Positions 11,451 through 55,409 are shown, counted from the stretch's first letter. The stretch is DNA of 64,000 bases from Patescibacteria group bacterium (GCA_041660005.1 JBAZXG010000004.1:5720-69719); one strand, 5' to 3'. The notes: generated by a model not told the origin, from the sequence alone. Translations and numbers: made by a program.

Positions 11451-11514
11451 TCATGCGCTCGCCTTGATACTTTAAGCAGTAACGCCAAATTATCAAAGGT
11501 AAAGAGCGAAAAAA

Positions 11515-11543
11515 AGTATAACAGGTTAGATAAAAACTGGCAA
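11515..11543 (-). promoter_or_regulatory. Sigma70-type promoter for rpsB-tsf (TTGCCA-17-TATACT on the minus strand).
   Basis: Reverse complement of 11515-11543 reads TTGCCA, a 17-nt spacer, then TATACT. Confidence 0.5.
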
Positions 11544-11578
11544 GACTTTGCTGAAATGAGGCACTTCACCAGGAAACC

Positions 11579-11607
11579 TTGCCAAAGAATTACGCCTCTG
11601 CTACTAT
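11579..11607 (+). promoter_or_regulatory. Sigma70-type promoter for rpmE-prfA-prmC (TTGCCA-17-TACTAT), giving an essentially leaderless mRNA.
   Basis: ttgcca at 11579-84, a 17-nt spacer, tactat at 11602-07, ATG at 11617. Confidence 0.5.
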
Positions 11608-11616
11608 CCTCACACT

Positions 11617-11940
11617 ATGAAATCAGCGATTCACCCAACGTATCACCCAAAAGCAACCGTTGTCTGCGTTTGCGGCAACACTTTTACGGTCGGCGCAACA
11701 GCGCCAGAACTGCATGTTGAACTGTGCAGCAATTGCCACCCCTTCTATACTGGAAAGCAAAAGCTGGTAGACACCGCACGACGGGTCGATAAATTTCAAA
11801 AACGAATTGATGCGCAGGGTTCTGCGGCCGAAGGCAAGCGCGGGAAGAAAGCCAAGCGTGCTGTACGAGCCACCAAACGAACACGAAAAGTTGACGAGTC
11901 AGCAAAGCCCCTTAGCAAAAAGAAAGCGTCCGCCGCGTAG
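11617..11940 (+). CDS. rpmE: 50S ribosomal protein L31 with a Lys-rich C-terminal extension.
   Basis: [11 protein letters not shown]...CVCGNTF...[13 protein letters not shown], the classic L31 zinc-ribbon pattern. Confidence 0.9.
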
Positions 11941-11979
11941 CTACGGACGGGCAGTATTGCCTGCCGGCAGAGAACAACT

Positions 11980-16672: not shown

Positions 16673-16756
16673 CTCCTTAGTCCTCTTCTCCACTAGCCGC
16701 CGCCCAAACAGGACGGGTTACGAACAAACTCACAAACATCGAATTGTTACAGAACA

Positions 16757-26855: not shown

Positions 26856-27959
26856 ATGGCTCTCCCCTATCAACGCATTAAAGCACTCGCTCGCGACGGA
26901 GCAATTTTGAGCTCAGCCGAGAGCATTAATGAGCAGCAGTTTCAACCTGCATCGCTCGACTGCACGCTCGGGGAAAAGGTGTATCGCATCTCATCCGGCT
27001 TTCTTCCCAAAGAAAATGAAACTGTTGCTGAACTCCTAAAAGAGCGCACGCTCTATGACTTTGCGCTGAAACCCGGAACGATCCTTGAGACGAATACCCC
27101 CTACATCATTCCTTTGCAAGAGTCGCTGGCTCTACCGGAAGCACTGACTGCCATTGCCAGCCCCAAAAGCTCAATTGGTCGGGTGGACGTCTTTGTTCGC
27201 GTCATTAGCGACAACAACCCGCAGTACGATTCTGTGCCAGCGGGTTACCATGGGCCACTTTACCTTGAAATTATTCCACTGACCTTTGCTATTCGCGTCT
27301 CTCCGGGTCTCGCTATGACGCAACTGCGTTTTCGAGATAATAACGAACATTTTCCAACCACAACTGAAATGCGGGCAATCCATAAAGAGCAATCGTTAAT
27401 TTTGAGCGAAAACGGAGAGCCATTACCCGCTGACGGCCTCCGGCTGAGAGACAATGTCCTATCTTTTACGGTTGACCTCACTGGTTCAGAAATTGTCGGC
27501 TACCGTGCAAAGCATTATGTAAACAAACTGCTCGATCTCACTAAAATCAATGAACACGAGACCGAGCTCTTTTGGCATCAGATTGATCGACAACCGGACG
27601 GCGAACTTATTCTAGAACCAAACTCCTTTTACATTATCGCCACAAAAGAACGAGTACGTGTTCCGGCAAACATGGCAGCAGAAATTATGCCCTACGACCC
27701 TTCAACAGGAGAGCTGCGCTCCCACTACGCCGGCTTTTTCGACCCGGGTTTTGGCTGTGGCAGTGACGGAACCATGCATGGGAACATTGTGGTACTCGAA
27801 GTTCGAGCGCACAGCGCCCCCTTCCGGCTGACAGACGGTCAAGTAATCTGTAAGATGATGTTTGAGCACCTTACCGAACTGCCAGAAAAAACCTACGGAT
27901 CTCTTATCGGTTCCACCTACACCGATACAAAAATTCGCTTGAGTAAATACTTTGTCTAA
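26856..27959 (+). CDS. dcd: dCTP deaminase family protein, long (about 360 aa) two-domain form.
   Basis: QPASLDCTLG matches the dCTP-deaminase/dUTPase-fold motif (QPASVDLRLG). 367 aa fits the long 2'-deoxycytidine-5'-triphosphate-deaminase family. Confidence 0.6.
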   Translation: MALPYQRIKALARDGAILSSAESINEQQFQPASLDCTLGEKVYRISSGFLPKENETVAELLKERTLYDFALKPGTILETNTPYIIPLQESLALPEALTAIASPKSSIGRVDVFVRVISDNNPQYDSVPAGYHGPLYLEIIPLTFAIRVSPGLAMTQLRFRDNNEHFPTTTEMRAIHKEQSLILSENGEPLPADGLRLRDNVLSFTVDLTGSEIVGYRAKHYVNKLLDLTKINEHETELFWHQIDRQPDGELILEPNSFYIIATKERVRVPANMAAEIMPYDPSTGELRSHYAGFFDPGFGCGSDGTMHGNIVVLEVRAHSAPFRLTDGQVICKMMFEHLTELPEKTYGSLIGSTYTDTKIRLSKYFV

Positions 27960-27960
27960 T

Positions 27961-29490
27961 ATGGAAAGCCAAGCCAAACGAGATGTGTTTGCCATTACCG
28001 GCCTGACGCCAGAAGTTCTGGCGGTCGCGATGGCAAAGTATAGCCGGTCAAAAAATTCGATCCGCGATACAATCGACGAGCTAACCGAGGAAAAGTCTGC
28101 GCAATTTCACGAAAAATGGGTGCTGGGGTATGGCGACGCTTCAGTGGCAGACATGGCAATTATTGCCATTGCTTGCGAAAACGTCTCTATTATTGCCTCA
28201 AAAGCCATAGAGGACACGCGCCTCGCCTCGTTTCAGGAAAAATCAACCCGCTACGTTGACTTTGATTCCTCGAAATATCATCGCCCCAAAGCGGCCATGA
28301 TGCGCCATGCTGAACTTTACGAAAAAACCGTAAATCATCTTTTTACCATGTATAACACGCTACTTGAAAAGATGATTCCCTATCTTCGCAAACGCATCCC
28401 TCGGCCAGCGGACACAACTGACAAACTCTACGAAGCAAAGCTGAAAGCCCGCTCACTCGATGCCGTGCGCTACCTCTTGCCAGTTGCCACGCTTACAAAC
28501 TTCGGGATGATTATGAGCGCTCGCTCGCTCCGTCATTTGATTTCAAAACTCAAGGGAAACGCTTACGAAGAAGTGCGCGAACTAGCCGAAGAGATTCAAG
28601 CAGCGGCACTAGAGCCAGCGTATAACCCACAAATAAAAAAACTACAGGAACCACTTGAGGCCCTGAAGAGTATGGGCACTGTTACCGCAAACATAGCTGA
28701 ACAAATTACCAGCATCGCTTCACTGCAAGTCAAGGGTGCGCCAACACTCATTAAACATACAGAAGCTTCACAGTACCATGCTGAGACACAAGTATATCTG
28801 AACAGCATCGCTACTGAACTGCTTGGTAGTGCTGCAATTGAAGACGCACCGCGAGTTGACTATCTTGAAGAACATTCTTACGAAGACGAACTTATCACGA
28901 CACTCGTTTACAGTGCCTGCAGCTATCCGTACCGTCAAATTCTTGCTCGTGTACAACCACTTACCCAAGAAAAAAAGCAGGAAATTTTAGACGCTCTCGC
29001 TAAACTACGCGGAACTTTTGACTACCCACGAAGGGAGTACGAAATTGGTGGGCAGTTCGTATTTGATATACTCATGGACTACGGCGCATTTCGTGACCTG
29101 CAACGACACCGCATCTGTACACAAATAAACCAGCCCCTAACAACGCAGCATGGCTATGAAGTTCCGTTTGAATTTCGCGATGCCGGTTTGGAACACGAAT
29201 TTACTGCCGCCATTGACGAAGCCCTCAAAGTTCACGCCATGATTTCTAAAAATATTGGCACTGAAGCAGACTATCTTATTCCTCTGGCTTGCAAGAAAAG
29301 AACATTATTCAAAATGAACTTGCGAGAACTTCACCACATGGTGGAACTGCGCTCAAAGCCGGGTGGGCACATGTCGTACCGAACGGTTGTTGTTGACATG
29401 CTCGACGCCGTACAAAAACGCCATCCGCTACTCGGAAAACACGTACGCGTATCAAAGCTGAACTATGATGAAGACTTCTTCAAACGCTAA
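27961..29490 (+). CDS. thyX: Flavin-dependent thymidylate synthase ThyX, tandem-duplicated (two ThyX domains, about 510 aa).
   Basis: Second domain carries the ThyX signature AFRDLQRHR...; first domain has a degenerate version (TRLASFQEKSTRY). The ATG at 27961 directly abuts the dcd stop; the track start 27952 is also possible. Confidence 0.65.
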   Translation: MESQAKRDVFAITGLTPEVLAVAMAKYSRSKNSIRDTIDELTEEKSAQFHEKWVLGYGDASVADMAIIAIACENVSIIASKAIEDTRLASFQEKSTRYVDFDSSKYHRPKAAMMRHAELYEKTVNHLFTMYNTLLEKMIPYLRKRIPRPADTTDKLYEAKLKARSLDAVRYLLPVATLTNFGMIMSARSLRHLISKLKGNAYEEVRELAEEIQAAALEPAYNPQIKKLQEPLEALKSMGTVTANIAEQITSIASLQVKGAPTLIKHTEASQYHAETQVYLNSIATELLGSAAIEDAPRVDYLEEHSYEDELITTLVYSACSYPYRQILARVQPLTQEKKQEILDALAKLRGTFDYPRREYEIGGQFVFDILMDYGAFRDLQRHRICTQINQPLTTQHGYEVPFEFRDAGLEHEFTAAIDEALKVHAMISKNIGTEADYLIPLACKKRTLFKMNLRELHHMVELRSKPGGHMSYRTVVVDMLDAVQKRHPLLGKHVRVSKLNYDEDFFKR

Positions 29491-34679: not shown

Positions 34680-37600
34680 TTAGTTCGTTGACCCGCCGGG
34701 TGCAAAGAGGACGGGTTCTAGGCCAGTCACCGGAGCGCCATCGGGGTACGCAAACTGCATTTCACTAATACCCCGCACAAAGTACTCCAACTGAAACTGG
34801 TTCTCTCGCATTCCACGGTCAGTTATCAGTCGGCGTTGTCCGTTCATCATTACATAGCGAAGGTGTGATCCGGCATAATTAAACACAGTGCCGTCCGGAT
34901 GCGGCGAAGACATCGTTAATGGTTCTCCTACGGTGTACTGCACCATAACGTCATCTGGAAGCGTGACAATGCGATCTCTCCAATTGGTGCCATACAACCT
35001 CTCCCCCACATCGTCAGTTTCAATCCAATGCAATACTCCACCGGGCGAAACAGCATAGACGTGTGGATCAGTTTCTATTTTTACCAAACGAGTTCCCGGA
35101 CGAACATGCGTTATGCCACTCAAAGGGTAGTAACTTAACTCCTCATCAGTTATGGCAATGACCTTTGGGTCTCTTTTGTACCAGCTACGGAACGTAACAC
35201 CATCTTCGAGGAAAGCATAGCGTTTACCATCATACCCAACAAAATACAGAGTATCGGGCCACACAGCTTTCACTACATCACCAGGGGCGGCTCGCCAGTG
35301 CGTCGGTTCGGCGCCAAGATAACGACCAGATCTTTCGTTGTCGCGATGAAACGTAGGCCATGGACTAAGAGTATTCCCGTCTGTGGTTCCATCGAGCTCC
35401 CAAACATAAATTGAACTACGATACTTGCTGTTCCTGGTCGACATCTCCGAATCCCAATCAGAACTTGCCACAATCTCAACCTTACCGTCGTTATCGATAT
35501 CAGCAACGGTTGCCGGTGCCTGTGCGTCCTGTTCAGTAATCTTAGGAAAGCCAGGTAAAACAATTCCAGCTGCGTCCCAAGCGTAAACACCGCCACCAAC
35601 CGATATGCCGCCGGCTGTTGTCAGTACATCTACTTTGTCGTCTGCGTCTACATCACTAATAATCGTAGAGTAATAATCATTCCACCCTGTCTGCTTTGGC
35701 CAACCAGGCATAAACGTGCCATCACTCTCAAAAGCTGCCGTTTCAAGGCCAAGACTACTGCCAACAACCTCTAAGTCCCCATCGTTGTCTAGATCGGCGA
35801 GTGAAGGTGATGACCAGAAATTATAACCCTTTCGTGCCGGCCAGCCCGGTAACATGTTTCCGCCTCGGTCAAAAACCGCCAGCCCGCCATAATTATAATC
35901 GGGCCATATCTCAGAGGCGTACTGCAAACCAACAACAATATCTTCGCGTCCGTCTTTGTCTAGGTCTCCAATAGCAGGAGATGAAAAAATTATACCCTGC
36001 GTGATAACGGGCCAACCATCTACCAAAGAACCATCCATATTGAACACTAAAATCTCACCATCGTTATTCCATCCTACAAATTTACCATCCTCAACGATTC
36101 CTCCTGCTTTTTCCGAAGGACGCACAATGACAATTTCAAGATCTTCGTCGTCGTCAAAATTACCTACCGCCGGCGTCGATTCATGATCGGCTCCCCAAGA
36201 ATTCTTTGAAAGTTGCCAGTCCGAGTACACAGTACCGTCGCTTCGCAGCACGGTAACATAATCTTCCCATGAACGAGAATGAATAATTATTTCGTACCGA
36301 CCATCTCGGTCAAGATCGGCCGCGGCAATGGTCGAACTGTAAGACGAAGGAATGACCCGAGGCCATCCCGCCAACATCTTACCCCTCGCATCAAAGCCGT
36401 AAATGTTAGAACCACTACCATCGTCAAACTGGTTGGTAACAAATATTTCTTTTTTCCCGTCGCCGTCGACATCGATTACTAATGGAATGTGCAGGTTGCC
36501 GCCAGTGGCAGCCCCGGTTCCGACATCGCTTACCCATAGTTGTTTCCCGCTGTCTGAAAAAGCGTACAACTTGGGAGGTTTACCGCCAACGTACGCGATA
36601 ATTTCCTTTTTTCCTTTGCCGTTGATATCACTAACGACTGGTGTAGCGTAACCGCCCCAAATTTTGCAGCCCGGTCCTGGTGCTGGGAACCAGTCATCAG
36701 CACAATCTTCAAAAGGTAACCTAACCGGCCAACCCTCCTTGAGAGTTGAGTCTAAGTAGACATGAACAGTAGACTGTTCGATTGTTGATCCGTACGTTAC
36801 GGTAACGTTTAAACTATACCAACCAGTAGAGAGCCCTCTGGTATCCCAGGCCTTAAGCGAACGAATTTTTGTCCAGCTGGTTGGCTGGTACCCTGACCCG
36901 TATTCAATACTCGTAACTTTTGCTCTGAGACCAGCTACCGCACGTATGTCTACCGGAACAACATCTCCCGCTCGTATAACATCTGAATCCAAGGGCGAAA
37001 CAAAAGTGACATTTTTAACAGAGACGTAGCCGTAATCTACGGCGCGCTCTATTACTTCTTGCCCGTCATATTTCTTCGCAACCACCCTAACCACGTAATC
37101 ACCACTAGACATTTTAAATGTGTCCAAAGGCCACACGATGTGCTCAAACCCTCCGCCATAGTTCTGGTGGAAAAGTTCTACCCAAGCATCTTCACTCGCA
37201 CTACTAGCGAGAGGTGCGTAGCTAAGAAATATCTGCCCACCACCAACGCTCTGAACAGTATAATCAATGTTTCGTATCTGACCCTCGCTCAAGATAGGTT
37301 GAATATTAACAATGGTTGGATGGTTTGGAATAGCCGCCGCCTTCAATACATCAATGCGACCACTTCCTTGCTCAATCGCAGTAACACCCAGGTTAGAAGC
37401 CGTATTTTTGAAAGCCGCTTTTATTTCCCGTGCACTCCAATCCGGATGCAATTGTTTTAAAAGTGCCGCCGCCCCAGCGACATGCGGGGTAGCCATTGAG
37501 GTGCCGGAGATCGCAATGTGTTCGCTGTCTAAACAGAGAGACCCATTAGCGTAATTGTCGTGCTGAGCAGCGCAAATACCAACCCCCGGAGCTGTTATAT

Positions 37601-38963
37601 CCGGCTTTACAAATGTTTGCTTATTATAACTGACTGGACCGCGCGAGCTGAAGTAAGCCAACTCTTCTTTCCCGTTAGAATCCAAAACCTTAGTACTAGC
37701 TCCAACTGTTATAACTTCCCTCGCCATACCAGGACTCCCGACCGATCCACTTGACGGCCCGGAATTGCCGGCCGCTACCGCAACCACAGTGCCTGCCAAC
37801 ATAGCGTTGTTTACAGCGGTTGATATGGGATCATCCGGGCTTCCCCAACCGCCGAGACTTAAGTTAATGACGTCAACTGCGTCTGAAGGGTCACCATCGC
37901 CATTTGGATCCATAGCCCGCTCTACCCCCTCAATGACGGCCGTCGTCGATCCTGACCCGGATTCATTTAAAACTTTATAAGCATAAATTGTAGCGTCAGG
38001 TGCCACACCTTTGAGTACACCGTTACCGGCGGCAGTAGCGGCCACATGCGTCCCATGCCCATGGTCGTCCATTGGATCGCTGTCGTTATTGATGACATCA
38101 TACCCACCGGCGACTTTACAGTTCGAACCTACGGCATTGCACCCGCCCAAGTCAGGATGCGTATAGTCAACACCGGTATCGACAATGGCAATTGTTACCC
38201 CCTGACCAGTAACAGCAGCACCACTGCTGTCAGTTTTTTCCCATAATGTATCTGCCTCAATCAAAGGAACTGAATCTGACAAATTAATTTGCGTAATATA
38301 ATTTGGCCAAAGCGTATACCCCGACCGTCTGATGTCGGCTGCCTCCTTGTCAGTGATATTTAGTTCAACACCATTAAAAACATTTGCAAACTGCCTACCG
38401 ACCGCAAGCGAAGGCAGCGAACGCTTGAGGTTCAAGAGTGCGACTTGCTGCTCGTTATTAATAACCGCTTTTCTATTAGCAAACCTTTGTTTGCTTAATT
38501 TACTTTGTTCGACTAACTGTTTTTCTAAATTTTTTATCGCCTTTGTACTTTTAGTTTGGCGAAGCTGCGTTGTAATGCCTCTCCGCTCTTCATCAATTTC
38601 TGTTTTTAACTGAGCGAGAGGTTCAGTATGAAGTTCTAAAATGTACCCGTTATATTTCCCCTGAGAAAACGACTGCATTGCTGATGAGGGTAACCCTGAA
38701 GTGGAGGCACCACCGGCCATGCCTGTGTATATTGAGGGATTTCCTTGTGTGCTATGTAAAATCTGAGGAAACAATACACCACTGTTCTGCGTCTTTTCTG
38801 CACTATTTCTAACACCCAGAGTGGTAGGCGTCGCTGAGTAATCAATTTTTGCACTAGCGCCTACTGGTGCGACGACTGATACGAGCATTGAAGCGACAAC
38901 GACGACATGGAGCGACTTCGACCAGACTTTTATCAGGCGAGAAAACCGACTCAATGGGGTCAT
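34680..38963 (-). CDS. Giant secreted subtilisin-like serine protease (peptidase S8) fused to an 8-blade FG-GAP beta-propeller and a C-terminal domain of unknown function. 1427 aa from the likely ATG.
   Basis: Signal peptide MTPLSRFSRLIKVWSKSLHVVVVASMLVSVVAPVGASA|K. Catalytic triad motifs AIVDTGVDYTHPDL (Asp), HGHGTHVAATAAG (His) and GTSMATPHVAGAAALL (Ser). Eight FG-GAP-like repeats (DINGKGKKEII, DVDGDGKKEIFV, DLDRDGRYEIII, GNFDDDEDLEIVIV, DLDKDGREDIVV, DLDNDGDLEVVG, DVDADDKVDVLT, DIDNDGKVEIVA). The track ORF starts at an upstream TTG at 39017. Confidence 0.85.
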   Translation of the reverse strand: MTPLSRFSRLIKVWSKSLHVVVVASMLVSVVAPVGASAKIDYSATPTTLGVRNSAEKTQNSGVLFPQILHSTQGNPSIYTGMAGGASTSGLPSSAMQSFSQGKYNGYILELHTEPLAQLKTEIDEERRGITTQLRQTKSTKAIKNLEKQLVEQSKLSKQRFANRKAVINNEQQVALLNLKRSLPSLAVGRQFANVFNGVELNITDKEAADIRRSGYTLWPNYITQINLSDSVPLIEADTLWEKTDSSGAAVTGQGVTIAIVDTGVDYTHPDLGGCNAVGSNCKVAGGYDVINNDSDPMDDHGHGTHVAATAAGNGVLKGVAPDATIYAYKVLNESGSGSTTAVIEGVERAMDPNGDGDPSDAVDVINLSLGGWGSPDDPISTAVNNAMLAGTVVAVAAGNSGPSSGSVGSPGMAREVITVGASTKVLDSNGKEELAYFSSRGPVSYNKQTFVKPDITAPGVGICAAQHDNYANGSLCLDSEHIAISGTSMATPHVAGAAALLKQLHPDWSAREIKAAFKNTASNLGVTAIEQGSGRIDVLKAAAIPNHPTIVNIQPILSEGQIRNIDYTVQSVGGGQIFLSYAPLASSASEDAWVELFHQNYGGGFEHIVWPLDTFKMSSGDYVVRVVAKKYDGQEVIERAVDYGYVSVKNVTFVSPLDSDVIRAGDVVPVDIRAVAGLRAKVTSIEYGSGYQPTSWTKIRSLKAWDTRGLSTGWYSLNVTVTYGSTIEQSTVHVYLDSTLKEGWPVRLPFEDCADDWFPAPGPGCKIWGGYATPVVSDINGKGKKEIIAYVGGKPPKLYAFSDSGKQLWVSDVGTGAATGGNLHIPLVIDVDGDGKKEIFVTNQFDDGSGSNIYGFDARGKMLAGWPRVIPSSYSSTIAAADLDRDGRYEIIIHSRSWEDYVTVLRSDGTVYSDWQLSKNSWGADHESTPAVGNFDDDEDLEIVIVRPSEKAGGIVEDGKFVGWNNDGEILVFNMDGSLVDGWPVITQGIIFSSPAIGDLDKDGREDIVVGLQYASEIWPDYNYGGLAVFDRGGNMLPGWPARKGYNFWSSPSLADLDNDGDLEVVGSSLGLETAAFESDGTFMPGWPKQTGWNDYYSTIISDVDADDKVDVLTTAGGISVGGGVYAWDAAGIVLPGFPKITEQDAQAPATVADIDNDGKVEIVASSDWDSEMSTRNSKYRSSIYVWELDGTTDGNTLSPWPTFHRDNERSGRYLGAEPTHWRAAPGDVVKAVWPDTLYFVGYDGKRYAFLEDGVTFRSWYKRDPKVIAITDEELSYYPLSGITHVRPGTRLVKIETDPHVYAVSPGGVLHWIETDDVGERLYGTNWRDRIVTLPDDVMVQYTVGEPLTMSSPHPDGTVFNYAGSHLRYVMMNGQRRLITDRGMRENQFQLEYFVRGISEMQFAYPDGAPVTGLEPVLFAPGGSTN

Positions 38964-39220
38964 AGTGTTCAAAAAAATTAGAGAAAACCCTTTTAGAAGG
39001 GTTGAATATCTTAGCAAAAATTAGCTTTTTGTCAAGGCGACTGCGGGGACCCACTATAAAATGACCAAAAAGCGAAGGTATCATTTTTTTATACCAACGC
39101 AGGCAGCGACGACGCAAAAAGATATAAATGGTATTAACCCCAGGGCTAAGCCCTGGATTTCTCAATTCGCCCGTGGGCGAAGTGAGAAAGGGAGCGCGAC
39201 AGAGCTACGCAAGTATCAAA

Positions 39221-41461: not shown

Positions 41462-42583
41462 TTATTCAAAACGAACCTGAATTTTGTTAGGTAACCGGGG
41501 TAAGTGCTTTTGCCAGTAGGGCGTCAGCTCGACATTTACGCTGTCAACACCTTCGAAGTTCATTAAAAACTGTTTCACCTCGTTCGGCGTAGCGCCAACA
41601 AAATTAATTGGAGAAAATACGGAACTGGTTGTATCAAGATTTGCTCCGACCTTCGCGCGTCCGCTCACTACAGCCGTTCTCGCCACGGGGTCATAATTAT
41701 CAATTGCATAGTGCCACTCGGTGTCGCTGACCGTCACGCCACTACCTGCTGTCTCTTTAACTCTTTCTTTCAATGCATTCTTACTAAATGCCGCTGCAAT
41801 AACTTTCACTTTCATGGAAACAGTAAGGGCTGCTGCCTTCTCCCCAACTTTACTCGAATCTGTCTCCTGAATGACTTGCGTTATAAAGTCGGCGTCGGTA
41901 AGGTCCCCGCTTGCCACTTGGGCAACATCAGCACTTTTCACGGCGTCAATGGCACGACTGAGTAAGGTTTGCTTTGCGTTCTCTAAATCCTGCTCACTAA
42001 CTGCCCGCACTGCCGCCCCACCTCGAGCCATGGCGCTATTTGACGTCGCATAAATCGAATTCTGTAAACTTGCAGAAAGACCGGGTATAGTAAAGCGGCT
42101 CGGACCAATGAGGAAGCTATCGTCAGTTCCATCTGCTTCTACAACTGCAGTCACTTCACCTTTGGCAGGAACTCGGACCGCCTGCTTTAACCGAAAAAGT
42201 ATGTTATCAGCTGTGAGCAAACGTGTAGTTTCAACAAGCGGCTGCGGCCTGTCGGTAGTGTTGGTAATAGTTACAACGCCACCGGCCTTCGCTGTTGCCT
42301 CAGTACCACCAGGCAGCAGAAAAGTGTCAGAAACGTCTTGTGTGGTTTCTAAAAAGGTAGCAGGTATGTTTTTACTGGGTATGTTTTGTCCAATGGTTTC
42401 TTCGGCTAATATGGCCTTGTAAACCACTTCTCGCTCGACCGCATGACGTCGAACAACCACAACCGCATGGGATAAAGTCGTATAAGCAATAAACAGCAAC
42501 AACAAAACCGTCAGCACGACGAAAGTGATGGCGATGTTTCTCAAAACTTTTGCTTTGTCCGGCATCAAATCAAATTCCCCCAT
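41462..42583 (-). CDS. Hypothetical membrane-anchored protein with a large extracytoplasmic domain, possibly with YbbR-like repeats.
   Basis: Single N-terminal TM (IAITFVVLTVLLLLFIAYTTL); repetitive beta-rich sequence; no diagnostic motif. Confidence 0.4.
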   Translation of the reverse strand: MGEFDLMPDKAKVLRNIAITFVVLTVLLLLFIAYTTLSHAVVVVRRHAVEREVVYKAILAEETIGQNIPSKNIPATFLETTQDVSDTFLLPGGTEATAKAGGVVTITNTTDRPQPLVETTRLLTADNILFRLKQAVRVPAKGEVTAVVEADGTDDSFLIGPSRFTIPGLSASLQNSIYATSNSAMARGGAAVRAVSEQDLENAKQTLLSRAIDAVKSADVAQVASGDLTDADFITQVIQETDSSKVGEKAAALTVSMKVKVIAAAFSKNALKERVKETAGSGVTVSDTEWHYAIDNYDPVARTAVVSGRAKVGANLDTTSSVFSPINFVGATPNEVKQFLMNFEGVDSVNVELTPYWQKHLPRLPNKIQVRFE

Positions 42584-46107: not shown

Positions 46108-46425
46108 TCATGCTGACGTATTTTTCTTACCCTTTTTTGTGGTAGTGCGTCGTGAGAACGGTTCGCTCCGCGCCATCAAAAAAGTAGCCACCCTGCCGAC
46201 GCCGTCAACCAATAACTGTAGTGAAGAGCTGGCGTGCTCTGCCTTATCACCAATCAATTTTACAAAACGATCGATAGCGGCGACGCGATCACGAAAATCC
46301 TCAAAGGTTCGGTAAACACCTCTCAGCAGCATGGCAACATAGTAGAGAGACCAGGAAATAAAAATGGTCAGCCAAAGAACGCAAAATGCAATTACGATGT
46401 AAAGAATGTCACTGCTCGTATACAT
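46108..46425 (-). CDS. Small membrane protein, hypothetical.
   Basis: 105 aa, one or two TM helices near the N-terminus. Downstream of pheT. Confidence 0.4.
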   Translation of the reverse strand: MYTSSDILYIVIAFCVLWLTIFISWSLYYVAMLLRGVYRTFEDFRDRVAAIDRFVKLIGDKAEHASSSLQLLVDGVGRVATFLMARSEPFSRRTTTKKGKKNTSA

Positions 46426-48814: not shown

Positions 48815-49831
48815 CTAAAACTGCTCAAGGAAACGTAAATCGTTTTCATAAAGAATACGAATGTCCGGAATATTGAGACCCGCGCGCATAAGCATGGTGC
48901 GTTCGACTCCCCATCCAAAAGCCAGACCGGTAACTTTTTTCGGGTTCAGCTTTGCCGCTGCTATGACATTAGGGTGGAGCATGCCTGCTCCGCCAAGTTC
49001 AACCCACCCCTGTTTACATAGTCGACACCCTTTACCATTGCAGACACCGCAACTGATATCGACTTCAAAACTCGGTTCAGTAAAACGGAAATGAAAAGGA
49101 CGAAGACGAACTTCGCGATCTACACCAAAGTATGTTTTCACAAAATATTCTAGTACGCCCTTCAAGTGACGAAAGGTCACCCCTTCAGCCGCGTACACGC
49201 CATCAAACTGATGAAAGACCGGCGTATGTGAGGCGTCCGACTGACGCCGATAACACTTTTGAATATTAATGAAGCGCACCGGTAAAGGTGACAGGGCGAG
49301 CGAGCGAGCAGTACCTGATGTACCGTGCGGCGTCAAAACAAAACGGTAGTTTCCCTCTAGCTTCGCGTCCATAAAGAACGTCTCCCACTCGTCGCGAGCA
49401 GGATGGTCAGCCGGCATATTCAGCGCCTCAAACGGATAGAACTCGGTCTCAATGTCCGGATGACGAACGCGCGTAAAACCAATTTCTCGAAAAATTCTAG
49501 CAATGTCTTCAATGGCTTTCGTCACTAAATGAAGATGACCAGTTTCGATTTCTATGCCGGGCAAGGTTGTATCAAGACGTAGGACCTCACCCACAACATT
49601 TTCTTCCGCTTCTGCTAAAGCTTTGTCAATCTCCACGCGCGCCTTATTGGCGGCACTGCCAATCTGAGGACGTTCTTTCGGCGCCACATTTTTGACTCCA
49701 CGCAATAACTGGGTCAATTTGCCTTGCCGACCAAGGTAACGTAAACGCACCTGCTCAACCGCTTCACTAGAATGCGCCCCGGCAATAGCAGTTTTTGCTT
49801 CGGCGAGTAATGCCTTAATGGCTTCCATCAT
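48815..49831 (-). CDS. pheS: Phenylalanyl-tRNA synthetase alpha subunit.
   Basis: Class II motifs (FRxE-like: PFHFRFTEPSFEVD) and a C-terminal GFAFGWGVERTMLM. Confidence 0.9.
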   Translation of the reverse strand: MMEAIKALLAEAKTAIAGAHSSEAVEQVRLRYLGRQGKLTQLLRGVKNVAPKERPQIGSAANKARVEIDKALAEAEENVVGEVLRLDTTLPGIEIETGHLHLVTKAIEDIARIFREIGFTRVRHPDIETEFYPFEALNMPADHPARDEWETFFMDAKLEGNYRFVLTPHGTSGTARSLALSPLPVRFINIQKCYRRQSDASHTPVFHQFDGVYAAEGVTFRHLKGVLEYFVKTYFGVDREVRLRPFHFRFTEPSFEVDISCGVCNGKGCRLCKQGWVELGGAGMLHPNVIAAAKLNPKKVTGLAFGWGVERTMLMRAGLNIPDIRILYENDLRFLEQF

Positions 49832-50217
49832 AAACGACGACCCCTCTGCTGGTAAGCAAGCACGGCAAATTCAAGAAAGGTGAGAGCGATAATTAAAAAA
49901 ACCATGTTCCACCAGGTTAGCAACTGTTTGCTCTGAAGAAATAACGCAGCCACAACTAAAAACGAAAAAGAAAATGCCTGACGAAAAGAAATAGTTACTT
50001 GCTGGTAAATAAGCTCATTTTTTAAAATGTAGTGGCGCAAAACTAGCCCCAGAAGAGAAAATGAACCAGTGAGCGCCAGATAGAGAGCAAGGTAAAAAAC
50101 GGTAAAGCCCAACCAGCCAGCGGTCGCCGGATCAAGAAAAAAAATAACCAATACCCAAGCACCCCAGGTGAGTAACGTCCCAAGTGCCATTAAAAAAACG
50201 TACTGTCTAAGTGTCAT
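49828..50217 (-). CDS. Small polytopic membrane protein, hypothetical. Translationally coupled to pheS.
   Basis: 129 aa, 3-4 predicted TM helices. Overlaps the pheS start by 4 nt. Confidence 0.45.
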   Translation of the reverse strand: MTLRQYVFLMALGTLLTWGAWVLVIFFLDPATAGWLGFTVFYLALYLALTGSFSLLGLVLRHYILKNELIYQQVTISFRQAFSFSFLVVAALFLQSKQLLTWWNMVFLIIALTFLEFAVLAYQQRGRRL

Positions 50218-50281: not shown

Positions 50282-50608
50282 TTAGTATCGCTTCGACCAG
50301 CTATCTTCTCTCGCCATTGGCCGCACCCGTATTCTTACAATACCCTGATTGGGAAACGTGCTGCGGAGTGCCTCTAGGAGCGCTTCCGAACGCATTTTCA
50401 CTTCCTGTCCAACGGTGGGGTTAGCAGCGCCAATGGTCAACGTTCCCAATTTATACGAAATGACGCGTATATCTGCCGGATGCAAGTCAGAAAGTATTTG
50501 ACGCATCAGTGGTTCAGCATTTTCAACAACAACGGCTGCGCTCACAACACGCTCAGCCCCGGTACGGTTGAGAGCGCTCTGTAAAAAGTCTGCAATGGGT
50601 TTAAGCAT
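50282..50608 (-). CDS. DUF721/DciA-like small protein (possible helicase-loader family).
   Basis: 108 aa. The N-terminal region and a C-terminal VISYKLGTLTIGAANPTVGQEV...LLEAL fit the DUF721 pattern loosely. Confidence 0.35.
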   Translation of the reverse strand: MLKPIADFLQSALNRTGAERVVSAAVVVENAEPLMRQILSDLHPADIRVISYKLGTLTIGAANPTVGQEVKMRSEALLEALRSTFPNQGIVRIRVRPMAREDSWSKRY

Positions 50609-50611
50609 AGT

Positions 50612-53569
50612 TTACGCCTCCGAAAAGGGACAAATATCTTTAAAGTCGCAATGACTACAATTTTGCTTTGACGGTTTCGCTGGAAATTTACCCGTCTGAA
50701 TTGCCGCTACGGTCGTCTTAACTTTCTCTTCAAGCTTTTGCAAATCGTCCGTTGAGCCCTTAAACGACAACGCCTTATTCTCGTTGAGGTAGTAAAAGGT
50801 AAGCTGCATCGGATCATCCCCCCAGATACGCTCTGCTGCCAGCTGGTAAATAAGGAGCTGATCCTTGTCCACTTCAGCAAGACTCCCAGGAACACGACCT
50901 GTTTTGTAGTCGATAATTTCAATGCCGCCCACAACAGCGTCGATACGGTCAATTTTACCACGAAGGGTGTAAGGTCCAATCTTTAAGGTGAATCCCTTTT
51001 CAACCGCTTGCGTCTTCGGCCACTTGCCATCATGCAACGCATAAAATGCTTTCAGAGACTCTTTGCCACGCGCGAAGTACTCATCGTGTATTTTTCGACT
51101 TGGATACCACTCATCAATCCATGCTTCTTCAAAGAGTTTGAGCAAATCCTGAAGTGTCGGAATGGCTATTACTGTCTCTGTCTTTCCATTGGGAAATAAC
51201 TGCACCTGCTCACGCGACTCTGCGTCGATTACGCGCTGAAAAAAACGCTCCAGCGTAAAGTGCATGGACTGCCCAAAACTAAAGGTATGCCGACCCCATA
51301 CCGGCACCTTCAAAACATGTGCATAACGATACTGCAGCGGACACGTTTCATAAGCTTTTAATGCAGTAAAACTAAAATGCTCAGGTATTGGCTGAGGGAA
51401 AACCTCGGGCCAGCGCTCGTCCACCGCAGCTACCGGGAATGCTTGGGCAGTAGCCACGTGCGTGATGGTACTCAAAGGAATATTGAGTTCAACCAGAAAA
51501 CGAGAAATTTTTTTCTTGCGCGCCCCTCCGTAATCTTCAGCTGACGTTAAATACAAACCCTGTTTAGCGCGCGTCATAGCTACATAGAAAAGTCGTCGCT
51601 CTTCTTCCAAGTGCACATCCCCTTCTGGAAGTATTTCTTTTAAGAGCGCCTCAGGCAACACAATGGGCTCACTGCGTTCAGTTGACGGGAAACGACGGTC
51701 AACGAGGCCGACAATGAATACGTGTGCAAATTCCAACCCTTTTGCAGCATGCACGGTCATCACTTTTACAACATCGGGTCCAAGCTCTGGATCAACGTTG
51801 AGGACGCCTGTTTCGCCAGATTCCATTTCGTACGCCATGGTCTCCATAAAATCACGCAACCGTGGATCACTCTGTGTTGCTTCCCAATGTCTGATGCGCT
51901 CATAAAACTGATTGAGATAATTGAAATTGATACGGGCACTCTCTTCTCCGGCAGCTTCGATAGCTTTGGTGTAGCCAATATCGGTTAAAACTTTGACCAA
52001 CAACTCGCTCGGGCGCCGCGTACGCGTCATCTCACTATGGTTCCGAACAAAAAATAAAATACGTTCAACAGCTTTAAGTCCTGCGGCACTCATGAGCGGC
52101 ACCAAACGTGCTTTGTCTAAGGCCTCAAAAAGCGAAATTGATTTCATTTTTGCATAGTGGCTGAGTTGAATGGCATCTTCTCCTGATAATTTCCAAAGTG
52201 AAAAACTGAGAACGCGCCATAAGCTCGGACTTTCGTGGTAATTATCAAGAAGACGTAAATAGCACAAAGTGTCCACGATAACCGGAGTTTTATAAAGACC
52301 CCTATTGGAAAATGAATGGTAGGGTATGCCGGCACGGGCAAGAACATCGCTAAAGGCGCCCGCTTGGTCGTTCGAGCGAGCCAAAATGGCCATGTCCCCC
52401 CAATTAATCTTTTTTTTCTGATGCAGGTCCGTAATTTTTTGCGCTACCAGCGCCTCTTCGTCGGCCAAGGTGGCACCATGCAAATGCACAATCTCCCCTT
52501 TTTCTTTTTGTACGGCCAATAATTTTTTATTGAGAGCCTGGCCGTCAATAATGGTTAATTGATGCTCGAGACGATTAGGATCATTCTGACGAATGAATGC
52601 ATAGGCGGCATCCAGAATGGATTGTCCAGAACGGTAATTTTGTACGAGAACGACGCTGGCAGCCGCGCTAAAATCTTTTCTGAACTGCAAGATGTTACTC
52701 ATAGAAGCACCGCGGAATCGGTAAATAGCTTGGTCGTCGTCACCGACAACCGTTAAGTTTTTCTTGTCGCCCGCGAGCAGTTTAACAAGTTCGTACTGCG
52801 CCCAGTTTGTATCTTGAAATTCGTCAACGAGAATATAGCGAAATTGCTTTTGGTAATCTTCCAAAATATCCGGTCGAGTGCGCAGTAAACGCAGGGTGTA
52901 AACGATGAGATCTCCAAAATCAAGCGCGTTATGCTCCAACAAAAGCTGCTGGTAAACGTGATAAGCGTTCGCTACCTCTTGAAGACGCGCCGCTTCGTCA
53001 TCGTCCGTCGTCTTTTTCTTGCGCTTCGCTTTACCGACGCGTTCGCTGTCTCTATTTAATACAGACTGCTCAGCAAAAGCCAGGTACTTTTCAGGATAAA
53101 TTTCCTCATCTTTCGCCCGCGAAAAATGACGAATAAGCGCATGCACAAACTTAACAGGATTCCCGAGCGGTCGGTAATAGTTTAACGAAAACCGATCTAA
53201 ATTTTTTCTGACCAGAAGCCACTGTTCTGTTTCGGTGAGCACTTTAAAATCATGCGGCACACCAATTGCTAGCGCGTGGCGTTCAAGTATGCGCTGGCAA
53301 AAAGAATGAAATGTTGAAACCCAAAGATCGGTATAGCCATAGGGCAGTAATTTATCAACCCGCTCTTCTATTTCACCTGCGGCCTTGTCGGTAAACGTGA
53401 GCGCTAAAATCTCGTCTGGCTTAACCTTCTTCGTATCAATAAGCCAGGCAAGGCGCCTCGTAATAACCGTGGTCTTGCCGGTACCGGCACCCGCAACAAT
53501 CAAAAGCGGTCCATCTGCGTGTGTTACTGCTATCCGTTGCTCTTCGTTTAAGCCCTGCAAAGTGTCCAT
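50612..53569 (-). CDS. UvrD/PcrA-family SF1 helicase fused to a C-terminal PD-(D/E)xK nuclease with a Cys cluster (AddA/AddB- or Cas4-like, single chain).
   Basis: Walker A LLIVAGAGTGKTT and UvrD motifs through about 650 aa. The C-terminus has IDRIDAV...IEIIDYKTG (PD-(D/E)xK) and a terminal C...CSHCDFKDIC Fe-S-type cysteine motif. The likely start is MDTLQGLNEEQRIAV at 53569; the 86 GC-rich codons upstream in the track ORF are judged non-coding. Confidence 0.8.
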   Translation of the reverse strand: MDTLQGLNEEQRIAVTHADGPLLIVAGAGTGKTTVITRRLAWLIDTKKVKPDEILALTFTDKAAGEIEERVDKLLPYGYTDLWVSTFHSFCQRILERHALAIGVPHDFKVLTETEQWLLVRKNLDRFSLNYYRPLGNPVKFVHALIRHFSRAKDEEIYPEKYLAFAEQSVLNRDSERVGKAKRKKKTTDDDEAARLQEVANAYHVYQQLLLEHNALDFGDLIVYTLRLLRTRPDILEDYQKQFRYILVDEFQDTNWAQYELVKLLAGDKKNLTVVGDDDQAIYRFRGASMSNILQFRKDFSAAASVVLVQNYRSGQSILDAAYAFIRQNDPNRLEHQLTIIDGQALNKKLLAVQKEKGEIVHLHGATLADEEALVAQKITDLHQKKKINWGDMAILARSNDQAGAFSDVLARAGIPYHSFSNRGLYKTPVIVDTLCYLRLLDNYHESPSLWRVLSFSLWKLSGEDAIQLSHYAKMKSISLFEALDKARLVPLMSAAGLKAVERILFFVRNHSEMTRTRRPSELLVKVLTDIGYTKAIEAAGEESARINFNYLNQFYERIRHWEATQSDPRLRDFMETMAYEMESGETGVLNVDPELGPDVVKVMTVHAAKGLEFAHVFIVGLVDRRFPSTERSEPIVLPEALLKEILPEGDVHLEEERRLFYVAMTRAKQGLYLTSAEDYGGARKKKISRFLVELNIPLSTITHVATAQAFPVAAVDERWPEVFPQPIPEHFSFTALKAYETCPLQYRYAHVLKVPVWGRHTFSFGQSMHFTLERFFQRVIDAESREQVQLFPNGKTETVIAIPTLQDLLKLFEEAWIDEWYPSRKIHDEYFARGKESLKAFYALHDGKWPKTQAVEKGFTLKIGPYTLRGKIDRIDAVVGGIEIIDYKTGRVPGSLAEVDKDQLLIYQLAAERIWGDDPMQLTFYYLNENKALSFKGSTDDLQKLEEKVKTTVAAIQTGKFPAKPSKQNCSHCDFKDICPFSEA

Positions 53570-53654
53570 ATTGAAATAGTATAGCATTATTGAAAAATGA
53601 TGCCCGGCGTCGCTCTTGGTGAGCGAGCGCCGGGCGGCGGACGGAAAACGGAGC

Positions 53655-53888
53655 TCATGGCGAGGCTCCAGTGGGATTCTTCTTCCGGCTGAGAACGCCG
53701 GTGAGCAGATCCAACATCTGCCTGGGACCAAACCCGGTAGGAAGCTCGTGCCTCCTGTTTGCGGCTTCCCCCTGAATCCGCTTATCGAGCGCCTTGAGCG
53801 TTCTGAGACTACACGCCTCGAGGTCACTCCTCGCTTCCGCGGGGTTCAGGCTGAGAAATGCAACGATGTCGAGGTCTTGAATCGGCAT
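53655..53888 (-). CDS. Small hypothetical protein (77 aa), GC-rich cassette gene 2.
   Basis: MPIQDLDIVAFLSLNPAEARSDLEACSLRTLKALDKRIQ... A perfect AGGAGG lies 7 nt upstream of the ATG. GC-rich. Confidence 0.45.
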   Translation of the reverse strand: MPIQDLDIVAFLSLNPAEARSDLEACSLRTLKALDKRIQGEAANRRHELPTGFGPRQMLDLLTGVLSRKKNPTGASP

Positions 53889-53901
53889 TATAAGGGGCCT
53901 C

Positions 53902-54024
53902 CTAGTCCCCGAACGACGCAGGCCCAATCAGGGCTTCTTGCTCTGCTTCCGGAAGGTCCGGAAACGTCGTAATGCGGATCACTTCTTCTGCCGCCACTTC
54001 CCCAGCCACGCCTTCGTTCTTCAT
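53902..54024 (-). CDS. Very small acidic protein (40 aa), GC-rich cassette gene 1.
   Basis: MKNEGVAGEVAAEEVIRITTFPDLPEAEQEALIGPASFGD. AGGGAG lies 5 nt upstream of the ATG. Its stop overlaps the Shine-Dalgarno of the next gene. Confidence 0.35.
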   Translation of the reverse strand: MKNEGVAGEVAAEEVIRITTFPDLPEAEQEALIGPASFGD

Positions 54025-54042
54025 GATTTCTCCCTATAACGC

Positions 54043-54071
54043 AAACTGCTCCGAGTTCTTCGGAGCAGTTT
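54043..54071. other. Perfect 11-bp-stem hairpin at the boundary between eno and the GC-rich mini-cassette.
   Basis: aaactgctccg-agttctt-cggagcagttt. A T-rich tract follows on the plus strand only. Confidence 0.4.
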
Positions 54072-54221
54072 GGGTCTTTGTTATTGAACGTTGACCTCAA
54101 ATTGCTCCGTCGTCGACAACGACAATACCAACGACGTTCTTCACGACGATGGAATTAAGAGAGTTTGAGGTGATGTGTTTCATCTTTACTAACATAGCAC
54201 ATCCGACTCGAACGTCAAGCG

Positions 54222-55409
54222 CTAGTCGTAAAGCCGAATGAGTTCGTTAAATTTGTCTAGCCGTTCGTGTATTGGTACGCCGATCTTGAGGCCATACGCC
54301 CCACCGGCCTTAGCCAGGTGAACAATAAAAGCGTCATTAGTTTCTCCGGATCGATGTGAGACTATCGTTTTAATGCCATGCTTTCTCGCGATATTCACGG
54401 AAGCGCATGCTTCACTGACTGAGCCAACTTGATTCGGCTTAATGATAACCCCGCTAATGCTATGAGCCAGTTTTTCTATTCGTTTAGGGTTTGTCACAGT
54501 TAAATCGTCGCCCACAATGAGTTTATTCGGGAATTTTTCCTTAGATTGCCTAAAACCATTTTCGTCGTCTTCTGAAAAATGATCTTCTATAGAAACGAGC
54601 TCAGGCACACGTTTAAAATAATCTTTGTAAACAGCTAAAAGCTCTACCGTAGAAAGTTTCTTCCCTCCAAAATGATAAGCCCCGCTGCGGTAAAATTCAG
54701 AGGCGGCTACATCTAACCCTAAACGAAATGTATAGCCACCCCTTACTTTGGCAACAGCCCGCTGCAATAACGTAAGAGGTGTTAAATTATCTTTGAAGTC
54801 ATACGAGTAACCGCCTTCGTCACCAATCGCTAAGTTCGAAATGTTATATTTCTTTTTAGTCAAATCTCCAAGCAAGCGATAGACAGAGGAAAGCTCTTGC
54901 GTTAACTCAGCGTAGGTTGACTTAACTCTGGCAATAATCATGTACTCCTGAATGTCTAGACTGTTGGTGGCATGCGCTCCCCCGTTAATGGTATTTGAAA
55001 AAATGAGCGGCCTTGTCTCCTGAACACCTTTAAAAAATTCTTTTCGCAACACTTCCCATGGTGCCTTTTTTTGTTCGTCCGCCAAAGCTCGCACAAAAGC
55101 AATCGAGCACCCAAGGATAACGTTGCCGCCTAATTTTTCTTTACGCGACGTTGGGTCAAGCGAGAGTAAGACAGAGTCAAACTGCTGAACGCTACTAAAA
55201 TTTTTACCGAGAACGTATTTTTCTATTTTCAAAACTGATTTTTTCGCGGCAGAAAAGTCGAAGATACTCGCTTCAAGACTGCCGCAACTAGCTCCCGCCG
55301 GCACGCTAGCAAGAAACGACTTACTGTTATGTCCTTGCAGTTCAATTTCAATCGTTGGATTACCGCGAGAATCAAAAATTTTACGTACCTTCAATTCTTT
55401 TACTCTCAT
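54222..55409 (-). CDS. eno: Enolase, canonical with the catalytic residues present.
   Basis: IFDSRGNPTIEIEL, IGDEGGY, IIKPNQVGSVSE, SHRSGETND and a terminal LKIG are all present. Confidence 0.9.
   Translation of the reverse strand: MRVKELKVRKIFDSRGNPTIEIELQGHNSKSFLASVPAGASCGSLEASIFDFSAAKKSVLKIEKYVLGKNFSSVQQFDSVLLSLDPTSRKEKLGGNVILGCSIAFVRALADEQKKAPWEVLRKEFFKGVQETRPLIFSNTINGGAHATNSLDIQEYMIIARVKSTYAELTQELSSVYRLLGDLTKKKYNISNLAIGDEGGYSYDFKDNLTPLTLLQRAVAKVRGGYTFRLGLDVAASEFYRSGAYHFGGKKLSTVELLAVYKDYFKRVPELVSIEDHFSEDDENGFRQSKEKFPNKLIVGDDLTVTNPKRIEKLAHSISGVIIKPNQVGSVSEACASVNIARKHGIKTIVSHRSGETNDAFIVHLAKAGGAYGLKIGVPIHERLDKFNELIRLYD

Follow-up and report, generated by a model that had tools for sequence, protein, structure and literature searches.

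The helicase-nuclease locus

In this study, we analysed a gene that encodes a UvrD/PcrA-type helicase and a predicted iron-sulfur (Fe-S) nuclease in a single polypeptide, together with the small dciA gene directly behind it, in a metagenome-assembled genome (MAG) of a Patescibacteria group bacterium (GCA_041660005.1). Both genes lie in a 64-kb stretch of contig JBAZXG010000004.1 (5720-69719), which was analysed as a whole and is called the window here; positions are counted from its first nucleotide, and features are on the minus strand unless stated otherwise. The helicase-nuclease coding sequence (985 aa plus stop codon) spans 50612-53569 and was identified by translation of the open reading frame (ORF) and by its Pfam domains UvrD-helicase, UvrD_C, and PDDEXK_1. 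The identical 985-aa sequence is present in NCBI as MFA5954594.1, named 'UvrD-helicase domain-containing protein', on a Patescibacteria-group MAG contig of 141,810 bp. The gene for a 108-aa DciA protein (50282-50608) starts 3 nt past the helicase stop codon. The third member of the block (49828-50217) encodes a hydrophobic 129-aa protein that has approximately four transmembrane segments, as judged by its hydrophobic stretches, matches no Pfam family, and overlaps the start of pheS. The minus-strand gene order is cvpA, tatD, phosphoenolpyruvate synthase/PPDK, 2-hydroxyacid dehydrogenase, enolase, a 650-bp gap, helicase-nuclease, dciA, the 129-aa membrane protein, pheS, pheT, a 105-aa ORF, and dnaE, and the window also contains gyrB, thrS, gatB, thyX, and glycolytic genes. 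The setting of the helicase-nuclease gene is a housekeeping operon that includes pheST and dnaE.

A PcrA-like motor and a flexible linker

Residues 1-700 (51470-53569) form a superfamily 1A (SF1A) motor of domains 1A, 1B, 2B, and 2A. Pfam UvrD-helicase covers residues 7-300 (E = 3e-85), and UvrD_C covers residues 306-678 (E = 3e-51). Motifs Q, I, Ia, II, III, IV, V, and VI are intact and conserved, and the SF1A signature sequences are all present: GAGTGKT at residue 27, DEFQD at 249, GDDDQAIYRFRGA at 276, QNYRS at 310, TVHAAKG at 605, and YVAMTRA at 662. The Walker A motif GAGTGKT (residues 27-33, 53471-53491) is invariant in a 28-sequence alignment. The complete UvrD/PcrA-type SF1 helicase proposed in the preliminary description of this locus was confirmed by these domains and motifs.

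A comparison of the family profile with the PDB gave the highest scores for PcrA (494 bits), UvrD (415-429 bits), UvrD1 (406 bits), and Rep (392 bits), with lower scores for AdnB (261 bits), AddA (223 bits), and RecB (87 bits). PcrA (1pjr) was also the top Foldseek match (E = 2e-44), while the whole-chain fold matches include AddA, AdnA/B, and RecB. Judged by sequence and predicted fold, the motor, which shares approximately 33% identity with PcrA, belongs to the PcrA/UvrD clade. NCBIfam equivalogs, including TIGR01073 and TIGR01075 (PcrA/UvrD) and TIGR00372 (Cas4), served as membership thresholds, and the scores remained below the cut-offs for PcrA (525.3 vs 911.2), UvrD (399.3 vs 1144.45), Rep (398.3 vs 951.45), AddA (208 vs 707.65), AddB (47.1 vs 903.7), and RecB (190.8 vs 696). 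The Tudor-like C-terminal domain of PcrA/UvrD, which binds RNA polymerase, is not present; residues 731-985 are occupied by the PDDEXK_1 nuclease instead. The AlphaFold2 model (mean predicted local distance difference test score (pLDDT) 81.6; predicted template modelling score (pTM) 0.69) consists of two well-folded parts joined by a low-confidence segment. This segment (pLDDT <50 at residues 708-725) lies in a poorly conserved and presumably flexible linker of residues 701-730 (51380-51469).

A RecB-family nuclease with four invariant cysteines

The C-terminal domain (residues 731-985, 50615-51379) is a PD-(D/E)xK nuclease of the RecB/Cas4/AddB/AdnA type. Pfam PDDEXK_1 (PF12705) matches residues 731-981 with 140.7 bits (E = 1e-40) against a cut-off of 22. 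In a family alignment of the query and 118 homologues (119 sequences), C743, H770, D874, D877, D887, Y888, K889, Q904, Y908, C971, C974, and C980 are identical throughout. Nuclease motifs II and III (50903-50950) extend from D874 in GKIDRID to D887-Y-K889 in IIDYKTG and correspond to GRLDRLE and VVDLKTG in AdnA, and the QxxxY motif QLLIY (Q904 and Y908, 50846-50860) is aligned with QLAMYQ of AdnA. The profile match and the catalytic D, (D/E)xK, and QxxxY residues make the domain a member of the RecB nuclease family.

Cys743 (51341-51343), the first predicted Fe-S ligand, lies N-terminal to the nuclease core, and the three C-terminal predicted ligands are in CSHCDFKDIC (C971-x2-C974-x5-C980, 50630-50659), the counterpart of CANCPVRSSC in AdnA. 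The overall spacing is C-x227-C-x2-C-x5-C. The C-terminus of the nuclease aligns residue for residue with that of mycobacterial AdnA, including CxxCx5C. When the nuclease domain sequence was compared with the PDB, the AdnA nuclease was the sole match, and the profile added two Cas4-family nucleases. AddB and Dna2 have been described with this 'iron staple' arrangement, in which a single cysteine precedes the core and CxxCx5C follows it, and the nuclease of the protein in the window is probably stapled by a Cys4 iron-sulfur cluster, as predicted from these residues. The RecB/Cas4-type nuclease with an AddB-like Cys4 signature that had been suggested earlier is borne out by the motif II/III residues and the four cysteines, all of which are invariant. 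The domain is not a member of Cas4 itself: the scores were 52.5 against a cut-off of 65 for TIGR00372 and 21 against 22.7 for PF01930, and neither the annotated neighbours nor the large ORFs of the window include cas genes.

Start site and 5' region

The mechanically called ORF extends from a GTG over 50612-53827 (1071 aa), adding 86 codons (53570-53827) to the 5' end. This extension is an artefact, as had been suspected. The start at the ATG at 53567-53569 is supported by several observations: homologues are 960-1050 aa long with query coverage of 99-100%, and both they and the NCBI protein begin at this position; the DNA upstream of the ATG shows no conservation in the extension frame, which is non-coding; and a terminator and a -10 element lie inside the extension. 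The 1071-aa version is absent from the protein collection that contains the 985-aa version. The terminator, presumably of the upstream unit, is a GC-rich hairpin (14 bp with one bulge) followed by a T-run at 53602-53635, and the loci of the two closest relatives, L081 and L085, contain a counterpart of this hairpin. An extended -10 element, TGcTATACT (53578-53586), ends 8 nt before the ATG, and TGnTATA is kept in L081 and L085, while the remainder of the gap is unconserved. Where the preliminary description had noted the lack of a ribosome-binding site at the extended ORF, the region instead contains this hairpin and -10 element. A leaderless or near-leaderless mRNA, suggested by the position of the -10 element, would best account for the missing ribosome-binding site of the helicase gene. 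A 118-aa ORF on the plus strand in the gap (53616-53972) was rejected as a gene because it is unconserved in relatives. Rfam searches of the whole window at gathering thresholds and of 53500-54300 at E-value thresholds gave nothing meaningful, and a search for tRNAs found none.

The downstream gene encodes a domain-only DciA

The 108-aa protein scores 27.1 bits against Pfam PF05258 (cut-off 24), and its four positional orthologues score 25.8-43.6 bits. Its NCBI entry, MFA5954593.1, is named 'DciA family protein'. The AlphaFold2 model (pLDDT 81.7) has a KH-like fold, and its top PDB matches are DciA from V. cholerae, solved in complex with DnaB (VcDciA, 8a3v; E = 1.4e-4), and the DUF721 domain of D. 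radiodurans DciA (DrDciA, 7ykm; TM-score 0.76 on the target), followed in the fold ranking by DnaA domain I. The assignment of the small neighbour to DUF721/DciA thus holds by Pfam score, database name, and predicted fold. The C-terminal flank of the domain is approximately 13 residues, which is shorter than the 14-residue limit of Group 4 DciA proteins. Blaine et al. (bioRxiv 10.1101/2022.01.24.477630) described Group 4 members with flanks of <14 aa in Bacteroidetes, Chlorobi, and Thermotogae; the group is common in several phyla, has not been studied experimentally, and was surveyed with candidate phyla left out. A domain-only protein with the DciA fold and a Pfam match is therefore a Group 4 DciA, as far as the profile and the predicted model indicate, and is a presumed operator of the replicative DnaB helicase. 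Like the Group 4 proteins, the protein from the window is essentially a bare DUF721/KH-like domain; its conserved place directly behind a helicase-nuclease gene is not described in the survey, which reports no link of DciA to UvrD or a nuclease.

The protein is difficult to trace by single-sequence search, which returned two proteins only. A profile built from the positional orthologues recovered 34 proteins of 86-129 aa, most of which match PF05258, and an exhaustive profile search of 1.84 billion representatives returned 2190 cluster representatives, the best 150 of which are 89-139 aa long. No helicase-DciA fusion, as sought in a Rosetta-stone test, was found among these best 150 of 2190 matches.

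A conserved block of helicase-nuclease, DciA, and membrane protein genes

The dciA gene is directly downstream of the helicase-nuclease gene in 14 loci, namely the window, L081/L082 (the same protein, counted once), L085, L083, L088, L086, L089, L001, L002, L005, L016, L090, L091, and L092. Across these loci, helicase identities are approximately 43-76%, and DciA identities are approximately 12-25% but reach 44-66% in the three closest relatives. In several genomes the intergenic gap between the two genes is 1-4 nt. At least seven different upstream neighbours precede the pair (enolase, an ATP synthase operon with a carbonic-anhydrase-like gene, cvpA, a MazG-like gene, DUF218, H+-pyrophosphatase, and unknown genes), and the block is followed by pheST or by hisS-like and mreBC genes. 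Homologues of the 129-aa membrane protein follow DciA in most of the 14 loci, among them L001, L005, L016, L085, L086, L088, and L089, and in L084 the homologue is directly after the helicase gene, with no DciA there. Sampling from the DciA side gave the same picture: three of three DciA homologues, picked solely by the length of their contigs, were directly behind a helicase-nuclease gene. In L091, a RarA/MgsA-type AAA+ gene of a kind associated with stalled replication forks (5567-6793) lies between DciA and the membrane protein.

No DciA neighbour was found in six close homologues (L004, L006, L019, L032, L084, and L087) or in any of the more distant Patescibacteria or Acidobacteriota loci examined. 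A local hidden Markov model of the DciA-like proteins, applied to all ORFs of 85 loci, recovered the seed loci only, with limited sensitivity to very divergent DciA, and detected no DciA near the plain PcrA/UvrD genes of other phyla or the Acidobacteriota fusions. The adjacency is a real, selected operon feature of one large subclade of Patescibacteria, and its most economical reading is that replication and repair genes are co-expressed in a conserved operon.

The helicase-nuclease gene has no recognisable partner in the window

The hunt for an AddB/RecC-like partner, proposed with the preliminary description, was run within the window, and none was found among the neighbouring genes and larger ORFs of the 64 kb. 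Neither RecC nor RecD is present in the window, and the locus is not of the RecBCD type. Nor is it an AdnAB-type pair: the helicase-nuclease is a lone gene between dciA and a non-coding gap, and the same is true of the 14 related loci. Restriction-modification genes, GajA, reverse transcriptases, and other defence genes were sought near the helicase-nuclease gene, and none was found. The PADLOC models of GajB and DRT-helicase match the generic helicase core only (338 bits), and no partner genes are nearby; with neither a GajA (OLD nuclease) nor a reverse transcriptase neighbour, the protein belongs to neither the Gabija (GajB) nor the DRT-helicase system.

Distribution and paralogues

More than 8000 database proteins match the helicase-nuclease. 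The best 120 are nearly all 960-1050 aa long with the same architecture, and, where named, they are mostly from Patescibacteria (Uhr-, Magasanik-, Buchanan-, and Azambacteria), the top match having 76% identity. Among species-representative genomes, full-length fusions are also present in Saccharimonadales, Dojkabacteria, and Peribacteria. Outside Patescibacteria, fusions occur in Acidobacteriota/Terriglobia (29-33% identity, full length) and in one Chloroflexia MAG. On a complete Acidobacteriaceae chromosome, the fusion gene is situated between hrcA-grpE-dnaJ-rsmE and a thiolase gene, again a housekeeping setting. The helicase-nuclease gene is a chromosomally core, widespread, and syntenic gene of Patescibacteria.

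The fusion is a paralogue of ordinary PcrA/UvrD and not its replacement, since plain PcrA/UvrD proteins occur alongside it in L012, in L029-type genomes, and in Southlakia (see below). The Paceibacteria MAG locus L029 encodes a canonical 754-aa PcrA with a Tudor-like tail. In L012, a nuclease-less 646-aa UvrD-like ORF (10324-12261, minus strand) lies 1.4 kb downstream of the fusion gene on the opposite strand.

Transposon sequencing data from Southlakia epibionticum

The transposon sequencing (Tn-seq) and proteome tables of Wang et al. 2023 cover the cultivated Saccharibacterium Southlakia epibionticum. Its protein SEML1_0364 (1093 aa) contains UvrD-helicase, UvrD_C, and PF12705 and carries a core-family flag; no other protein in the proteome table matches PF12705. 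By architecture and its KEGG assignment (K03657), SEML1_0364 is the likely orthologue of the protein in the window. The successive Tn-seq calls for SEML1_0364 are NE/NE/GD (normalised reads 8081, 1516, and 361), i.e., a late growth defect, and the same calls are given to recA (790, 264, and 43) and recF (1618, 574, and 206). The plain 700-aa UvrD SEML1_0668 (5101, 3894, and 2154) and recJ (3649, 1970, and 1177) are called NE. Neither 'AddA' nor 'RecB' is named anywhere in the Southlakia supplementary files, and the table lists no PF05258 (DciA) protein, either beside the likely orthologue or elsewhere. By analogy with recA and recF, the pattern fits a role in recombinational repair, although the phenotype is non-specific.

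Other features of the window

Between the enolase and helicase genes, positions 54042-54218 hold a conserved, non-coding-looking element with a conserved extent of approximately 150 nt. Its parts are a promoter-like TTGACG-16-TGcTATGTT, a 32-codon Val/Ile-rich mini-ORF (MLVKMKHITSNSLNSIVVKNVVGIVVVDDGAI), nested hairpins, and a terminator hairpin of 12-14 bp, which is followed by a ribosome-binding site and then by a 40-aa ORF of low conservation. The element is 74% identical to that of L081, and a 35-nt core is 91% identical to L085. RNAalifold predicted 41 pairs, 12 of them with compensatory changes, from three sequences only, and there was no Rfam match. The element thus resembles an attenuator with a leader peptide, or else a small RNA. 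A LeuA/homocitrate-synthase-like gene with HMGL-like and LeuA_dimer domains is located at 15110-16693. Such a gene would be unusual in Patescibacteria, whose biosynthetic genes are usually few, and it could be related to the Val/Ile-rich leader at 54100-54200.

The normal enolase gene is at 54222-55409, and a second, very divergent enolase-like gene (6404-7600; Enolase_C 47 bits, Enolase_N 41 bits) is part of a glycolytic cluster beside PGK and iPGM. On the plus strand, a 512-aa ORF (27952-29490) contains two Thy1 (ThyX) stretches; at approximately double the length typical of ThyX, it may represent a tandem fusion of flavin-dependent thymidylate synthase. The 1445-aa subtilase encoded at 34680-39017 (Peptidase_S8), which carries FG-GAP repeats, is probably a large surface protease. 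Two ORFs close to dnaE have no Pfam assignment. One is the 105-aa ORF between pheT and dnaE (46108-46425), which keeps its position in L081 (103 aa), L085 (100 aa), and L001; the other is a 373-aa ORF between dnaE and thrS (41462-42583).

A proposed role in DNA-end and fork processing

Starting from the observed domain identity, intact catalytic and cysteine residues, housekeeping context, and gene-block conservation, we infer the substrate, cutting polarity, oligomeric state, and physiological role of the helicase-nuclease as follows. The best available explanation, which we consider reasonably probable, is stand-alone processing of DNA ends or forks that feeds RecA, in the manner of AddAB but in a single chain. 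At a DNA end or a regressed fork, the 3'-to-5' SF1A motor would load onto the strand that ends 3' and then unwind the DNA. The Fe-S nuclease, tethered by the flexible linker, would be of the AddB/AdnA fork-junction type that cuts the displaced 5' strand; it could trim one strand in cis, or in trans within a homodimer, and the single-stranded DNA left over would be available to RecA. The helicase-nuclease may replace AddAB, AdnAB, or RecBCD, which these small genomes seemingly lack. At the level of transcription, the helicase gene would open its own unit from the extended -10 element with little or no leader, and DciA, the membrane protein, pheST, and dnaE would come after it. An AddA/AddB-like end-processing activity in one polypeptide was part of the preliminary description; the missing partner in the window and the Southlakia Tn-seq pattern make it plausible, and we retain it as a proposal.

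Several considerations weigh against this proposal. The literature searched contained no biochemistry on any single-chain UvrD plus Fe-S nuclease family member. One active motor and one nuclease would cut one strand only, unless the enzyme is dimeric. Where the nuclease lies with respect to the motor is not readable from the AlphaFold2 model, owing to the low-confidence linker (pTM 0.69). The orthology of SEML1_0364 is assigned by architecture and KEGG, and a late growth defect is not specific to recombination; furthermore, RecJ and RecF in Southlakia provide an alternative resection route. The close similarity of the motor to PcrA (494 bits) leaves room for PcrA-like roles. Finally, the survey of the window's own genome for AddAB/RecBCD spans 64 kb. 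The literature also offered nothing specific on surveys of recombination genes in Patescibacteria.

A possible but less likely interpretation is that the helicase-nuclease, as an accessory motor of the replisome, clears or degrades stalled or reversed replication forks and the mini-DciA then reloads DnaB so that replication restarts, or that the KH domain of DciA is an adaptor or operator of the helicase-nuclease. The order of the two genes is kept in 14 loci despite at least seven upstream neighbours, it was recovered in all three cases sampled from the DciA side, and the gap is as short as 1-4 nt. The PcrA-like motor, the presence of dnaE in the same gene string, and the RarA/MgsA gene inserted into the block of L091 point in the same direction, and Group 4 DciA proteins have none of the extensions that serve DnaB binding in the species studied. 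However, the six close homologues and all the distant Patescibacteria and Acidobacteriota loci examined have no DciA neighbour, the Southlakia table has no PF05258, and neither a helicase-DciA fusion (among the best 150 of 2190 matches) nor a UvrD or nuclease link in the DciA survey was found. Co-expression alone can explain a kept gene order in streamlined genomes. The pairing of helicase and DciA, described at the outset as a possible module, is supported as a conserved adjacency in 14 loci and not as a physical or mechanistic link.

It is rather unlikely that the protein is simply this lineage's plain PcrA/UvrD, engaged in nucleotide excision or mismatch repair, RecA-filament removal, or transcription-replication conflict, its Tudor domain having been exchanged for an accessory nuclease. 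PcrA, UvrD, and Rep are the best matches at every level, and JGI calls many of the homologues 'DNA helicase-2/PcrA'. The equivalog scores are nevertheless far below the cut-offs (525 vs 911 for PcrA and 399 vs 1144 for UvrD), the Tudor C-terminal domain is missing while a canonical 754-aa PcrA exists in L029, and plain UvrD paralogues are present beside the fusion in L012 and Southlakia, where the plain UvrD is called NE and the fusion shows a late growth defect. The strict conservation of the nuclease and cysteine residues argues that the nuclease is central to function.

We give little credence, too, to the more far-reaching idea that the block is a functional unit, in which DciA would be an adaptor or operator of the helicase-nuclease or would couple fork processing to DnaB reloading as a compact form of replication restart, and in which the enzyme may be a homodimer like a presumed ancestor of AdnAB/AddAB. 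No statement of such a homodimeric ancestor was found in the literature, and the idea is our own.

A defence nuclease-helicase, the remaining suggestion of the preliminary description, is highly improbable and was rejected: related fusions are reported mainly in defence contexts near type III restriction-modification or Dcm/Vsr genes (PMC5704561) and the PADLOC GajB and DRT-helicase models match the motor (338 bits), but these matches cover the generic helicase core, score lower than PcrA, and lack companion genes, the neighbours are enolase, pheST, dnaE, and DciA with no defence gene nearby, the gene is syntenic across Patescibacteria and core-flagged in Saccharibacteria, and the Acidobacteriaceae copy lies among hrcA, grpE, and dnaJ.

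Comparison with known helicase-nuclease systems

By architecture, the fusion of a UvrD-like SF1 helicase to a pfam12705 nuclease places the protein among the UvrD-Cas4-like fusions. Hudaiberdiev et al. 2017 (PMC5704561) described these fusions as the largest, monophyletic branch of pfam12705, either stand-alone or with neighbours such as Dcm/Vsr or type III restriction-modification genes, in genomes that also have RecB; the role predicted there is RecB/AddB-like. Those fusions have the same architecture (N-terminal UvrD-like SF1, C-terminal Cas4-like PDDEXK_1); they were reported in defence contexts, whereas the gene in the window is in a housekeeping operon with dciA, pheST, and dnaE. The architecture has thus been known since the 2017 description of the UvrD-Cas4-like fusions (PMC5704561), and NCBI already carries generic annotations for the two genes. 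The finding as such is the correct domain annotation of an already annotated gene with a known architecture. The new element of the analysis, and its only new lead, is the conserved block of helicase-nuclease, DciA, and small membrane protein. The DciA adjacency is a testable lead on how Group 4 DciA works without the DnaB-binding extensions of the species studied.

PcrA, UvrD, and Rep are the closest motors by sequence and fold, and in the protein of the window the Tudor domain is swapped for a nuclease of approximately 255 aa. Dna2 and bacterial Bad also unite an SF1 helicase and a RecB-family nuclease, the latter held by a Cys4 Fe-S staple, in one polypeptide, but their nuclease is N-terminal and their motor is of the SF1B 5'-to-3' type, and they are not homologous as whole proteins. 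In AddAB, AddA combines an SF1A motor with a RecB nuclease, and AddB has the iron-staple cysteine layout shared with the protein of the window. In the Bacillus enzyme, the AddB staple nuclease, with one cysteine before and three after the core, is required for DNA-end binding and 5'-to-3' cutting. The locus in the window differs in that it has no AddB-like, Chi-scanning subunit with a dead helicase, and the Fe-S nuclease is on the chain of the active motor.

AdnAB is built from similar parts: each subunit consists of a UvrD-like motor and a C-terminal RecB-type nuclease, and the AdnA nuclease, with its Fe-S cluster and CxxCx5C, is the best match to the nuclease domain among solved structures. 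In AdnAB, the Fe-S cluster is in the AdnA nuclease, which is at the Y-junction and cuts the displaced 5' strand, and AdnB is the lead 3'-to-5' motor. AdnB has an aromatic ratchet pawl in motif III, and F285 is at that position in the protein of the window. AdnAB is a heterodimer encoded by two paralogous genes, with AdnB as the lead motor and AdnA as the Fe-S 5'-strand nuclease, whereas the window has one gene with an intact motor and an AdnA-type Fe-S nuclease and no adjacent paralogue; the motor is also much nearer to PcrA (494 bits) than to AdnB (261 bits). As the Fe-S nuclease of AdnAB and AddAB is a junction-type cutter of the 5' strand, the protein therefore appears to join a lead-type motor and a junction-type nuclease in one chain. 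A sizeable part of bacterial diversity belongs to Patescibacteria, in which DNA repair has hardly been studied. Should the protein be their end-resection enzyme, no bacterial counterpart of RecBCD, AddAB, or AdnAB would be simpler, and it would offer a tractable model for the cooperation of an SF1A motor with an iron-staple nuclease in an enzyme that has no partner subunits.

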